From the IMG/VR virus record IMGVR_UViG_2541047790_000003: a DNA stretch of 10,589 bases, one strand, 5' to 3'. The stretch's first letter is position 1, and every line of letters begins with the position of its first letter. The notes under the pieces are model-generated. The model saw nothing but the letters and a program-made list of their open reading frames with translations. It searched no databases and was not told the origin of the DNA. Below are positions 1-6,392 of this stretch, in pieces. The position numbers and the translations under genes are program-made. Source of the DNA: a virus (Duplodnaviria; Heunggongvirae; Uroviricota; Caudoviricetes).

Positions 1-189
1 TGGATGTTCGCGGGTTCCGACAGCGGTGGTGAACATGCGGCGGTGTTGTACTCGCTGATCGGCACATGCCGTCTGAACAATGTGGAGCCAGAAAAGTGGC
101 TGCGTTACGTCATTGAACATATCCAGGACTGGCCGGCAAACCGGGTACGCGATCTGTTGCCCTGGAAAGTTGATCTGAGCTCTCAGTAA
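1..189 (+). CDS. IS66-family transposase, C-terminal fragment (5' end lies outside the window)
   Basis: Frame is open from base 1 to TAA at 187-189. Translation ...FAGSDSGGEHAAVLYSLIGTCRLNNVEPEKWLRYVIEHIQDWPANRVRDLLPW resembles the conserved C-terminal region of IS66-family transposases (from memory). Confidence 0.7.
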   Translation, partial: WMFAGSDSGGEHAAVLYSLIGTCRLNNVEPEKWLRYVIEHIQDWPANRVRDLLPWKVDLSSQ

Positions 190-219
190 ATATCAATACG
201 GTTCTGACGAGTCGCTTAC
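1..219 (+). mobile_element. Right end of an IS66-family insertion sequence (partial; boundary approximate)
   Basis: About 30 bp after the transposase stop the sequence reads ...GAGTCGCTTAC (ending at 219); its reverse complement GTAAGCG... is the usual start of IS66-family terminal inverted repeats. Lambda-like sequence follows immediately. Confidence 0.5.
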
Positions 220-423
220 CTTTTCCAGAAATGCGTTTGGAATGAACGTATATCCATCCTCTTTTGGTAGAGACGGGAGCAACGCCCTCGCCTCAGCCTT
301 CAGAAGCTCAGTTCTGGCAACTTTCACAAAAGAGATTTGAGTTCTTTCATCAATGGAACGAAGGAAGCGCAAACGCTTAGCTTCTTTGTGTGTATCAGGT
401 GGATTAAAGCCTTTGTTTCGCAT
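193..423 (-). pseudogene. Truncated phage gene in the replication-module position downstream of cII, fused to IS-derived codons
   Basis: ATG at 423-421 with GAGGT 8 nt upstream, 22 nt after the cII stop. 76 codons (MRNKGFNPPDTHKEAKRLRFLRSIDERTQISF...); the last ~8 codons lie inside the putative IS terminus before TGA at 195-193. Not recognisable as lambda O. Confidence 0.4.
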
Positions 424-499
424 ATAATTACCTCGTTGGATGTTGTTAAAATTCCATTTGTATTTGATCAGAACGCTCGGTTGCCGCCGGGCGTTTTTT
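423..499 (+). ncRNA. oop: oop-like antisense RNA (3' end defined by terminator; 5' end approximate)
   Basis: Intrinsic terminator on the plus strand inside the cII 3' end (stem 474-493 with G-U wobbles, T-run 494-499), as for lambda OOP RNA, which is antisense to the cII 3' end. A perfect TATAAT sits at 423-428 upstream. Length and start are not determinable from sequence alone. Confidence 0.4.
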
Positions 500-1990: not shown

Positions 1991-2896
1991 ATGCCAAATT
2001 TACCGATGGGCGGATCGCAGGGTGAATTACCCTTAGTACCTACAGTAGAAGTTGTTGCTGATGGCATTCCTATGGGGGTGCTTAATGATGGAACCCCTTA
2101 TCTAACTCTTTACGGTTTAGCCAAATTATGTGGCATAGATGAAGCACCTCTTCGAATGTTTACATCTAACTGGGAGACTGAAAAAAATAAGCCAAGAGGA
2201 CAAAAAGTAGCTGCATACTTAGCTGAGAAAGGATTTAACAACGTTGACCGACTGTATACCCGCGTCATAAATAGCTCAAACGTTGAAACACATGCTTATC
2301 CTGACTATGTTTGTATGGCTATCCTCCGTTACTACGCTCTAGATGCCACCAATTTTGATAGGTCAGTCGCAATAGGTAATTTTGTTCGCTTGGCTGAGTA
2401 CACGCTTAAGCGAATGATTTATGAAAAGTCAAATTACAACCCAAATGCTTCAATAGATATCTCATTCGAGAACTATAGAGCAAGGATTAAGCTAAACGAT
2501 CAGATACCGACAACTCATTTTGCAGTATTCAGAGAGATAGCTGACATTGCCATGAACCTGATCGGAGGAGGATTCCCAATGGATGACACCACATCTTTGG
2601 ATGGAAGTGTTGGAATTCACTGGGGAAAGTATTGGACAGCTAATGGGCTATCTGAGAAATTCGGGGAAAGGGTGCAGTACCCACATCTATTCCCCGAAAA
2701 TTACAGGCAGTCAGCTGCAAATAAGCATATAAAAGCTTGGATTTATCCTATTGAGGCACTTGGCGTGTTCAGAAAATGGCTACACGATAATTACGCAATG
2801 GAAAAACTGCCAAATTACCTTGGGAACAAAAAGATTAGTAATGCCTCCGAGCTATTAGAGTTGATAAAAAAACCAGCACTCCCAAATAAGCATTGA
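1991..2896 (+). CDS. Hypothetical 301-aa protein in the rexAB slot; candidate exclusion/defence gene with a possible KilA-N/Bro-N-like N-terminal domain
   Basis: ATG at 1991 with AAGGA 12 nt upstream; 301 codons ending TGA at 2894-2896; protein-like composition; coding sequence is AT-richer by eye than cI and N. No similarity to RexA noticed. The N-terminal segment ...VPTVEVVADGIPMGVLNDGTPYLTLYGLAKLCGIDE... is reminiscent of KilA-N/Bro-N domains; this is unverified. Confidence 0.8.
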   Translation: MPNLPMGGSQGELPLVPTVEVVADGIPMGVLNDGTPYLTLYGLAKLCGIDEAPLRMFTSNWETEKNKPRGQKVAAYLAEKGFNNVDRLYTRVINSSNVETHAYPDYVCMAILRYYALDATNFDRSVAIGNFVRLAEYTLKRMIYEKSNYNPNASIDISFENYRARIKLNDQIPTTHFAVFREIADIAMNLIGGGFPMDDTTSLDGSVGIHWGKYWTANGLSEKFGERVQYPHLFPENYRQSAANKHIKAWIYPIEALGVFRKWLHDNYAMEKLPNYLGNKKISNASELLELIKKPALPNKH

Positions 2897-3374: not shown

Positions 3375-3701
3375 ATGGATGCACAAACACGCCGCCGCGA
3401 ACGTCGCGCAGAGAAACAGGCTCAATGGAAAACAGCAAACCCCCTGTTGGTTGGGGTAAGCGCAAAACCAGTTAACCGCCCTATTCTCTCGCTGAATCGC
3501 AAACCGAAATCACGAGTAGAAAGCGTACTGAATCCGATAGACCTTACAGTGCTGGCTGAATACCACGAACAGATTGAAAGCAACCTGCAGCGTATTGAGC
3601 GCAAGAATCAGCGCACATGGTACAGCAAGCCACGCAGTGAAATGGGTGTGACTTGTGTTGGTCGCCAGAAAATGAAATTAGGCAGCAAACCACTTATTTG
3701 A
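3375..3701 (+). CDS. N: Antitermination protein N
   Basis: ATG at 3375 with AGGAGA RBS. Translation MDAQTRRRERRAEKQAQWKTANPLLVGVSAKPVNRPILSLNRKPKSRVESVLNPIDLTVLAEYHEQIESNLQRIERKNQRTWYSKP... includes the arginine-rich boxB-binding N-terminus; about 90% like lambda N from memory, with a divergent C-terminus. The ORF-track start at 3243 is an upstream extension. Confidence 0.95.
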   Translation: MDAQTRRRERRAEKQAQWKTANPLLVGVSAKPVNRPILSLNRKPKSRVESVLNPIDLTVLAEYHEQIESNLQRIERKNQRTWYSKPRSEMGVTCVGRQKMKLGSKPLI

Positions 3702-3712
3702 GAGGAATTAAT

Positions 3713-4336
3713 ATGTCATCAATCCGCTTAACTACGAGAATGAAAGAGGAAATCGCTCGTAACGCTTTAATTAAGTCTGGGGTTTTCACTGAACTTGAAG
3801 AAGTAACAAAGTTAAAGAACCAGCTTGCACTTGACGCCAGAGTTATTGCGTTTGGCGGGAAAAAGAAAACTGAGGAAGTTGATCAGTTATCATCCAAGTT
3901 GGTAGCTATAAGTGAAGAACTTGAAAAGATGGGATGTTCATTTTACTCATACGATGTTCGTTCTACTTCAATTTATCTGACTGCATCTGGCAGAAGGATT
4001 GGATGGCATTCATATGGGAAAGACGGCAACGGCGAAGATATATTGCTCCCTACTCCGAACAAAGATAAATGCATGTTTAGCGCAGAACACGAAATAACAA
4101 AAAGGTTTGATGAAATCTGCGCATTGCAACAAAAACTTGAAGCCAAGAAAAAGGATATCGAATCAAATGTATGGGCTGCTTTGAACTCAGTCACAACAGT
4201 TAAGCGACTTATTGAGGTTTGGCCTGAAAGCAAAGAATTGCTACCAAAAGAAGCAGATAAAGCAAGTACAGCACTTCCTGCTTTACGGGTAGAAGATTTG
4301 AATAAGATGATTGGACTTCCTTCCGAGGCCGCATAG
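3713..4336 (+). CDS. Hypothetical 207-aa protein (cargo gene immediately after N)
   Basis: ATG at 3713 with GAGGAA 6 nt upstream, 11 nt after the N stop; 207 codons of protein-like composition (MSSIRLTTRMKEEIARNALIKSGVFTELEEV...); low GC by eye. No family recognised. Confidence 0.8.
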   Translation: MSSIRLTTRMKEEIARNALIKSGVFTELEEVTKLKNQLALDARVIAFGGKKKTEEVDQLSSKLVAISEELEKMGCSFYSYDVRSTSIYLTASGRRIGWHSYGKDGNGEDILLPTPNKDKCMFSAEHEITKRFDEICALQQKLEAKKKDIESNVWAALNSVTTVKRLIEVWPESKELLPKEADKASTALPALRVEDLNKMIGLPSEAA

Positions 4337-4399: not shown

Positions 4400-4870
4400 A
4401 TGACAAAATCACGGAGCGTACCTTTTCCTGAATCAGAAACTGAACATAATGGAATGCCTGTTTTCTGGAGATTCCAAGCGACAGTTGAAGAAGATGGAAT
4501 CAAAATATTCGCACTTCAATATATAGCTTTTCATCAGACAGAGCATTATGCATGGTTGGTTCCTGCGCATTGGATTGTTGATTTTAAACCAGCACCAAAT
4601 CAGTGGTTACAGGAATGGAAACAAAGGAGAAATAGATATGCAATTAAGAAAGTAGCAAAAAATGCAGAAAGATCTTTTGCATTCCCAACGAAGAAACTTG
4701 CTATTGAAAGTTTATTGCGTCGGAAGAAATACCATTTAATGAGAATAAAACAAGATTTGGCTGTTGTATCAACTCTTGTTGATGGGATGAAAAATATTGA
4801 TACATCAATACCAGATATTGAATATAACTTTGGACACAACCAAGAAACAGAAAATTGGGTATTTTATTAG
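4400..4870 (+). CDS. Hypothetical 156-aa protein (second cargo gene)
   Basis: ATG at 4400 with GAGGTGA RBS 4390-4396; 156 codons (MTKSRSVPFPESETEHNGMPVFWRFQATVEEDGIKIF...), basic C-terminal half; low GC by eye. No family recognised. Confidence 0.8.
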   Translation: MTKSRSVPFPESETEHNGMPVFWRFQATVEEDGIKIFALQYIAFHQTEHYAWLVPAHWIVDFKPAPNQWLQEWKQRRNRYAIKKVAKNAERSFAFPTKKLAIESLLRRKKYHLMRIKQDLAVVSTLVDGMKNIDTSIPDIEYNFGHNQETENWVFY

Positions 4871-5423: not shown

Positions 5424-6392
5424 ATGAGTGAAGTAACAGATTTAGTTGTTATTGAAAAATCAAATGCAATGACTGTATTTCAGTCTGCCGACCAGATTGA
5501 AGAAATCCTTCAAAAGGTTGAACGTGAAGTTATGTCCTTTGTTCCTGATATCACAACGGCAAAGGGCAGGAAGGAGATCGCTTCTCTGGCGTATAAAGTT
5601 GCGCAGACGAAAACATATCTCGATGGTCTTGGCAAAGACCTTGTTGCTGAACTGAAGGAAATTCCAAAGCTAATTGATGCCAACCGCAAGACAGTGCGTG
5701 ATCGCCTTGATGAGCTGAAAGCCAAGGCACGCCAGCCTCTTACTGATTATGAGGAAGAACAGGCGCGGATTAAAGCCGAAGAAGAAGCTAAGGCAGCAGC
5801 TGAAGCTCTCGCAAAGCAAATTGAGTCTGACCATGAAATAGCTATTTTGATGGATCGCGAATTTGACCGCCAAAGAGAAGAGGCAAGACTCAAAGCGGAG
5901 CAGGAAAAGCGAGAGCATGAAGAACGCTTAAAAAGAGAAGCTGAAGAGAAAGCCAGAGCAGAAGCCGAAGCAAAGGCAAAAGCCGAAATTGAAGCAGCAG
6001 CAAGGCGAGAAGCAGAAGCTAAGGCCGCTGCGGAACGAGCAGAGCGTGAACGCATTGAAGCCGAGCAACGAGCACAGCGCGAAGCAAAAGAGGCAGCAGA
6101 ACGAGCTGAAAGAGAAAAGCAGGCAGCAATTGAAGCAGAACGCAGAAAAGCACAGGAGGAGGCTGAACAAATCCGTCGCGATGCTGAAGCAAAAGAGCAA
6201 GCCAGAATAGCAGAAGAAAAAAGAATCAAGGACGAAGAAGAGCGTAGAGCAAAGGATAAAGCTCACCGGAAAGAAGTTAATAACAAAATACTTGCTGACC
6301 TTATCAAGGTTGGCGCATCAGAAGATGTTGCTAAAAATATCATAACAGCCATCGTAAAAGGCGAAGTATTCGCAACAAAAATAACCTACTAA
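5424..6392 (+). CDS. Hypothetical 322-aa protein with a long E/A/K/R-rich central helix
   Basis: ATG at 5424 with AAGGAGGA RBS. Globular-looking N-terminus (about 110 aa), then about 180 residues made almost entirely of E, A, K, R and Q (EAEAKAKAEIEAAARREAEAKAAAERAERERIEAEQRAQREAKEAAERAEREKQ...), then a short C-terminal domain. Confidence 0.85.
   Translation: MSEVTDLVVIEKSNAMTVFQSADQIEEILQKVEREVMSFVPDITTAKGRKEIASLAYKVAQTKTYLDGLGKDLVAELKEIPKLIDANRKTVRDRLDELKAKARQPLTDYEEEQARIKAEEEAKAAAEALAKQIESDHEIAILMDREFDRQREEARLKAEQEKREHEERLKREAEEKARAEAEAKAKAEIEAAARREAEAKAAAERAERERIEAEQRAQREAKEAAERAEREKQAAIEAERRKAQEEAEQIRRDAEAKEQARIAEEKRIKDEEERRAKDKAHRKEVNNKILADLIKVGASEDVAKNIITAIVKGEVFATKITY

Follow-up and report, generated by a model that had tools for sequence, protein, structure and literature searches.

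The 10,589-nt stretch of viral DNA analyzed here (IMG/VR record IMGVR_UViG_2541047790_000003; hereafter, the window) begins inside an insertion sequence (IS) and continues into prophage DNA, an arrangement that a preliminary description, made from the sequence alone, had interpreted as a prophage truncated by the IS. Our comparisons of assembled sequences indicate, rather, that the prophage is interrupted, not truncated, and that its apparent end is the end of a draft scaffold. The best explanation, in which we place high confidence, is a simple and recent transposition of an IS66-family element into a small gene, orf90, of a complete P22-like prophage. Specifically, a complete 2,704-bp ISCro1-group IS66 element (tnpA, tnpB, tnpC) would have transposed into TGGAAAAG at orf90 codon 68, the target open reading frame (ORF; phrog_2519) being preceded by cII and followed by the O-like initiator gene in a ~40-kb P22-like (Lederbergvirus-type) prophage with a lambda immunity region, and the transposition would have duplicated 8 bp and deleted nothing. 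Both the type of IS and the type of prophage are known, and the 8-bp duplication is the canonical one; the event is as such ordinary.

The IS66-family element and its junction with phage DNA

The window holds one end of the IS, and the remainder was read in L002, a 4.84-Mb contig of GCA_964051185.1 in which the junction is the same and all 10,423 nt compared are identical to the window. Coordinates are those of the window unless L002 is named.

1-219, + strand: right-hand 219 bp of the 2,704-bp IS66-family (ISCro1-group) IS
1-189, + strand: C-terminus of TnpC, 62 codons, stop at 187-189
194-219, - strand: IRR, the terminal inverted repeat, reading inward GTAAGCGACTCGTCAGAACCGTATTG and pairing with the other IS end
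193-423, - strand: 76-aa fusion ORF, 68 orf90 codons followed by 8 IS codons (VSDSSEPY) and a stop
220-227, - strand: 8-bp target-site duplication copy TGGAAAAG (+ strand, CTTTTCCA), the only copy in the window
L002 11826-12173: tnpB, 115 aa (NF033819, E=5e-38), beyond the window
L002 12173-12823: tnpA, 216 aa (NF038385, E=1e-85), beyond the window

Positions 1-219 were 100% identical (E=4e-110) to many copies on E. coli chromosomes and plasmids, which carry the annotation 'IS66-like element ISCro1 family transposase', and positions 4-189 on the + strand encode the final 61-62 residues of an IS66 transposase (Pfam DDE_Tnp_IS66_C, E=2e-17). The preliminary description had proposed a look upstream for the rest of the IS, and in L002 the full element was found at 10205-12908 (2,704 bp), its right end being the part inside the window. 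The genes tnpA, tnpB, and tnpC were all intact there, so that the accessory genes of the IS66 family were present; the tnpB start overlaps the tnpA stop, and a gap of ~19 bp precedes tnpC. The complete TnpC (523 aa; NCBIfam transpos_IS66, E=9e-144) comprised LZ_Tnp_IS66, zf-IS66, DDE_Tnp_IS66, and the C-terminal domain, the composition of an IS66 transposase.

The terminal repeats of the element were imperfect, reading GTAAGCGACTCGTCAGAACCG... (GTAAGCG...) at one end and GTAACCGTCTCATTTAAACCG... (GTAACCG...) at the other, and 18 of 26 positions paired between the IRR and the opposite IS end, GTAACCGTCTCATTTAAACCGTCTTT. Imperfect terminal repeats starting 5'-GTAA are reported to be the consensus of the IS66 family (ISfinder; Han et al. 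2001). The assignment of the GTAAGCG-type end to this family, which had been proposed from the letters of the window, agreed with both the repeats and the transposase domain. A literature search for a definition of the ends and duplication of the IS66 family returned no direct statement.

Full-length copies of the 2,704-bp element at 98-100% identity were common on E. coli plasmids and chromosomes. The IS66 elements of E. coli, that is, the ISCro1 group and IS679 of plasmid pB171, likewise have tnpA, tnpB, and tnpC, GTAA repeats, and an 8-bp duplication, and we found no structural difference between them and the IS here. Han et al. (2001, J Bacteriol 183:4296) reportedly gave a length of 2,704 bp for IS679, equal to that of the IS here. 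An ISCro1 copy in ST131 has been reported as 2,824 bp (PMC8764528), and the IS here, at 2,704 bp, may therefore be a sister element rather than ISCro1 proper. ISCro1-type elements are active and alter expression in ST131 (PMC8764528).

Homology with the uninterrupted prophage of ZH063 started exactly at position 220 (100% identity over 220-1100), placing the breakpoint at 219/220 and the IS terminus ...GAGTCGCTTAC at 219, in line with the IS66-type terminus ...GCTTAC that the preliminary description had located at about 219. We searched 5,426 complete E. coli genomes with positions 1-1100, and 43 records carried the phage part; in all matches listed, the phage-part match began at 220 or 221, and no record among the 5,426 genomes had a filled site or spanned the junction. 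A second copy of TGGAAAAG was present at the opposite IS end (L002 12909-12916), and the empty site in ZH063 had a single copy. The 8-bp target-site duplication, a property of the IS66 family for which a search had also been suggested at the outset, thus flanks the IS on both sides in L002. At its left end, a simple insertion would read ...AAATGAGACGGTTAC, then TGGAAAAGCTGCTCAAAGAAGAC, then rep, with the IS end joined to TGGAAAAGCTGCTCAAAG... ahead of rep.

On the other side, 204 nt from 423 down to 220 comprise the 68 native codons of the fusion ORF, with the stop at 195-193, and so the earlier reading of a gene cut after about 68 codons and fused to IS-derived codons was exact to the base. 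For E. coli HVH 154, this fusion protein has the accessions EQS66539.1 / WP_021535600.1, and a Pfam search with the 76-aa sequence gave no match. That the IS-phage junction is chimeric, an artefact of assembly with no insertion at this site, might be considered given that the window opens within a repeated element at a scaffold end. We regard this as scarcely credible, since the junction is common to two independent assemblies and the 4.84-Mb contig reads through the entire IS and includes an exact 8-bp duplication, the target of which occurs once in ZH063.

The immunity region and the interrupted gene

On the phage side of the junction, the window contains the start of orf90 and, reading toward higher coordinates, a lambda-type immunity region.

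220-423, - strand: first 68 codons of orf90 (90-codon ORF, phrog_2519, function unknown), the first gene of the replication module
424-445, - strand: 22-nt spacer between cII and orf90, read directly, with Shine-Dalgarno GAGG at 434-431
446-739, - strand: cII, 97 aa (Pfam Phage_CII, E=5e-48)
470-507, + strand: oop-type intrinsic terminator (hairpin and T-run) within the cII 3' end, from a terminator scan
818-850, - strand: nutR, with boxA CGCTCTTA and boxB GCCCTGAAAAAGGGC, upstream of the insertion
858-1058, - strand: cro
1083-1111 (L002 9313-9341), - strand: promoter pR, TTGACT-17-GATAAT, the sole promoter-like match in the region
3375-3701: N (annotated)

The presence of cI, cro, cII (Pfam), pR, nutR, and N identifies a lambdoid phage with lambda immunity. 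Positions 453-1100, which include cro, nutR, and cII, had 98.3% nucleotide identity to lambda 37999-38646. At the cII stop codon, the window departs from lambda and joins the type seen in Kapi1, CUS-3, and Stx2a phages. When lambda, Kapi1, an Stx2a phage, and the window were aligned, the cII 3' end and the terminator proved to form a conserved linker joining the immunity and replication modules, on both sides of which lambda, Kapi1, and the Stx2a phage diverge. An Rfam scan of positions 1-1200 (E<=1) had no match and thus lent the oop RNA no independent support. The cII gene, the oop terminator, and a gene start with a ribosome-binding site 22 nt after cII, all of which the preliminary description had recognized, were confirmed by sequence, and its designation of the region as lambda-like held up to cII; the interrupted gene, in contrast, proved to be CUS-3/Kapi1-like.

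The orf90 ATG is at 423-421 on the minus strand, 22 nt past the cII stop, and the gene matched phrog_2519 across 90 of 90 positions (E=3e-57). In ZH063, the intact orf90 (L001 11932-12204, - strand) encodes a 90-aa hypothetical protein located after cII and followed by a replication protein and then a replicative helicase. The temperate phage Kapi1 has a 100% identical orf90 placed between cII and 'replication protein O'. The gene was also found in CUS-3 and 48 Stx2a phages with unrelated immunity regions, where it always precedes the same 315-aa O-like gene, the ATG of which is 2 nt past the orf90 stop. A Salmonella homologue, 74% identical, retains an open frame with 20 synonymous and 21 non-synonymous codon changes, and orf90 is therefore a real gene. 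Kapi1, CUS-3 (Lederbergvirus), and the ZH063 prophage thus share the orf90-rep-helicase module found here, with 99.3% identity over positions 220-756 in CUS-3 and essential identity to the IS-carrying prophage over 17.5 kb in ZH063. Unlike the prophage here, all three are without the IS, and Kapi1 and CUS-3 have other immunity regions.

The C-terminal third of the orf90 product (residues 55-88) weakly resembled the N-terminus of O-type initiators, with matches to Phage_rep_O at E=0.01, below the cutoff, and to phrog_678 at E=0.006; orf90 could be a small regulator or the fossil 5' end of a displaced initiator. Among PDB sequences, the one match to orf90 was at chance level (E=0.95). Three other identities were set aside. 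A tandem duplicate of rep was ruled out because BLASTP detected no real similarity between orf90 and the downstream rep protein (E=0.15), lambda O was rejected because lambda identity ends at the cII stop codon, beyond which the sequence is CUS-3/Kapi1-like, and the initiator itself was rejected, the O-like gene being intact and starting 79 nt past the IS. The earlier statement that the insertion lies at the start of the replication module was therefore fair, in that orf90 is the first gene of the module and the initiator is untouched.

Several further observations concern this region. The annotation of rep starts at an internal ATG and gives 295 aa (L001 10982-11869, - strand), and an upstream ATG, 2 nt past the orf90 stop, gives a 315-aa form (L002 12988-13935, + strand) that starts MSNTAKIYDF..., like lambda O, and is so annotated in Kapi1; the RefSeq start is probably miscalled. 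A perfect TATAAT at 423-428 (+ strand) shares bases with the orf90 start codon, which is read from the other strand, and lies ~45 nt upstream of the stem of the oop-type terminator (470-497). No good -35 was found for this TATAAT, which could be a pO-like promoter for a short antisense RNA. Directly after N is an Nmad5-family 'putative nucleotide modification' gene (3713-4336, + strand), followed by ORFs without family assignment, including those at 4400-4870 and 5424-6392.

The prophage beyond the insertion

An exact-sequence look-up of the 76-aa fusion protein led to three contigs, among them L002 and L003. The latter is scaffold KE700341.1 of GCA_000458295.1 (E. coli HVH 154), which is contained exactly in the window, and the first base of the window is the first base of the scaffold. 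The IS was therefore cut by assembly and not by biology, and the window holds just the right 219 bp of the element because the HVH 154 draft scaffold breaks inside a repeated element. Repeated IS copies are the usual break point of short-read assemblies, and for this reason a truncated prophage should not be read into phage sequence that breaks off at an IS where a window or scaffold begins.

In L002, the DNA directly past the IS holds the remaining 22 codons of orf90, then the O-like gene (Phage_rep_O) and a DnaB-type helicase, after which came NinB/E/X/F, RusA, NinH, Q, holin, endolysin, and Rz. The genes for rep, helicase, nin functions, Q, holin, endolysin, and Rz were intact, so that the gene loss of a cryptic prophage was not seen, and neither was decay, as comparison of the flanks with ZH063 showed no mismatch in 7,323 positions on one side and one in 10,204 on the other (1 of 17,527 in total). 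Replication, late, and lysis genes beyond the IS had been named in the preliminary description as what would speak against a defective prophage, and the proposed truncation does not stand.

The far side of the IS was read in GCA_964051185.1 and not in the draft from which the window comes (GCA_000458295.1), and a later IS-mediated deletion in HVH 154 itself would be conceivable, though improbable. Likewise, L002 ends in the lysis cassette, and the structural genes of the IS-carrying prophage were inferred from the near-identical prophage of ZH063. That prophage is complete, P22-like, and situated between dacD and sbcB, and has the P22-type structural set, namely tailspike, ejection proteins, needle, gp10, gp4, coat, scaffold, portal, and terminase. 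It is flanked by a 13-bp direct repeat, TTTGGTACACATC (NZ_CP014522.1 2217876 and 2257651), which is the probable att core and would delimit a prophage of ~39.8 kb.

The contrary interpretation is that a deletion has its edge at the IS, so that the replication, late, and lysis genes would be gone and a defective remnant kept as an immunity and defence island. The phage sequence in the window does stop at the IS, and the rex slot does hold a BstA-type defence gene. We nevertheless consider this very improbable. The stop coincides with the scaffold end, and for L002 the interpretation is refuted by the whole IS, its 8-bp duplication, and the early, Q, and lysis genes downstream of an identical junction; moreover, an intact 40-kb prophage has essentially the same sequence in the flanks. 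As to the defence gene, the presence of BstA is uninformative on domestication, since its placement downstream of the prophage repressor is a conserved arrangement that is normal in functional temperate phages and was characterized in the functional prophage BTP1 (PMC8585504). The domesticated defence island put forward in the preliminary description is thus not supported by the structure of the prophage. The gene itself, at 1991-2896 (+ strand) downstream of cI, encodes a full-length homologue of the BstA abortive-infection protein (phrog_6287, E=5e-135; Pfam BstA_C).

Returning to a simple insertion into a complete prophage, several observations bear on its age. The fusion protein is recorded on 2 contigs only, compared to ~1,000 for the intact allele. 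Together with undiverged flanks and the lack of a filled site among the 5,426 complete genomes, these counts indicate a very recent transposition that is private to one lineage.

We also observed the IS elsewhere in the same type of prophage. S22EC, a member of ST131 clade B (PMC8764528), has a 100% identical 2,704-bp IS in the same prophage and in the same orientation, located just after the helicase (L004 7001-9704; NZ_CP076687.1 2226069-2228772). This copy has its own independent duplication, TGTGAGCA, on both sides, and the adjacent helicase is annotated as frameshifted. The S22EC and orf90 sites thus represent two independent insertions of one IS in one operon. A 100% identical copy of the IS is also borne by the S22EC plasmid NZ_CP076688.1.

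Likely effects on prophage induction

The direct effect of the insertion is loss of the last 22 codons of orf90. In addition, pR drives cro, cII, orf90, rep, and the genes beyond, and 2.7 kb of antisense-oriented IS, with genes that point against pR transcription, now separates pR and nutR from the replication, nin, Q, and late genes. As nutR lies upstream of the insertion, antitermination by N would be expected for transcription that runs from pR into the IS. Adhya, Gottesman and de Crombrugghe reportedly described, in 1974, that N-modified polymerase in lambda reads through terminators over many kilobases. When the IS and its junctions were scanned for promoters and terminators, no outward promoter toward rep and no terminator excess were detected, and rep retains its own start region 79 nt past the IS. 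Given intact nutR and N and the retained rep start region, N-modified transcription would be expected to read through the IS, and the prophage is probably still inducible. A handicap is likely, through polarity that is partial, the loss of orf90, collisions with transcription of the IS, and a size of ~42.5 kb that, for a headful packager, leaves scant terminal redundancy. On balance, we lean toward a prophage that is inducible yet handicapped, and we consider it unlikely that the insertion has no measurable effect.

With regard to genome size, the IS-carrying estimate is 39.8 kb plus 2.7 kb, and the P22 headful is 43,400 ± 750 bp (PMC8402733). If capsid capacity equals that of P22, terminal redundancy would fall from ~3.6 kb to ~0.9 kb.

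A close parallel is the Shigella phage Sf6, which remains viable although an intact IS911 sits in its nin region in the opposite orientation, and which lyses faster and is fitter after deletion of the IS (PMC5630979). Both cases involve an intact host IS that lies antisense within a pR operon, in a temperate phage of P22-like type, and that breaks up a small accessory gene. In contrast, IS911 belongs to the IS3 family and is downstream of the replication genes, whereas the IS66 element is upstream of them.

Other precedents point to stronger effects. An ISCro1 insertion reduced transcription of the downstream gene afaA in ST131 (PMC8764528), and polarity could therefore exceed what we have assumed. 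A spontaneous IS2 insertion in lambda P was found among survivors of replicative killing and abolished replication functions (PMC4926192). This insertion, and the classical polar r mutants, resemble the present case in that an IS lies in or just before O/P-type genes and could block replication after derepression. They differ in that an essential gene was hit or loss of function was selected, whereas here a non-initiator ORF was hit and rep and helicase are intact.

Such precedents bring into consideration a prophage that is structurally complete and functionally locked, whether through polarity of the IS on rep, helicase, and Q or through loss of orf90 or an oversize genome, so that immunity and BstA would be kept with no risk of lysis. 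This we hold to be possible, though doubtful. With the IS in place, pR is separated from all genes required for replication and late expression, the lambda P and afa insertions show what an IS can do to such genes and to downstream transcription, the identical IS of S22EC lies elsewhere in the operon beside a frameshifted helicase, and ~42.5 kb is near the P22 headful of 43.4 kb. Against this, N and nutR are intact, and N-modified polymerase, as established for lambda, ignores terminators; rep keeps its own translation start and the IS has no excess of terminators; Sf6 grows with an antisense IS in its pR operon; 42.5 kb remains below the P22 headful; and the insertion was seen in just one lineage and showed no evidence of having spread or been selected.

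A more far-reaching proposal is that the insertion, in parting pR/nutR from the replication and Q genes and abolishing orf90, locks the prophage in a non-lytic state in which cI and BstA are still expressed, and that the early-right operon is a recurrent, selected target of IS insertion. The second site of the identical IS in the S22EC operon is a hint in this direction, and we judge the proposal as a whole to be decidedly improbable. If it were true, the first step of prophage domestication would have been caught in the act. The insertion in itself offers, at most, a natural test of the cost of an IS between pR and the replication genes of a P22-like phage.

Finally, small features were present at both IS ends. 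A weak terminator-like hairpin, CGGTTCTGACGAGTCG, occurs in the terminal repeat at positions 199-228 (+ strand) and is followed by a T-rich run, CTTACCTTTTCC, created across the junction; the number of terminator-like sites in the region was not above shuffled expectation. In the left end, an ATG within the IS (...TTTAAATGAGACGGTTAC|TGGAAAAG...) shares its frame with the final 22 codons of orf90 (L002 12886-12975, + strand). The resulting 29-codon ORF, MRRLLEKLLKEDISVSQFNDVLKVFRQGR, stops 2 nt ahead of the rep ATG, and may be due to chance or could preserve translational coupling into rep.
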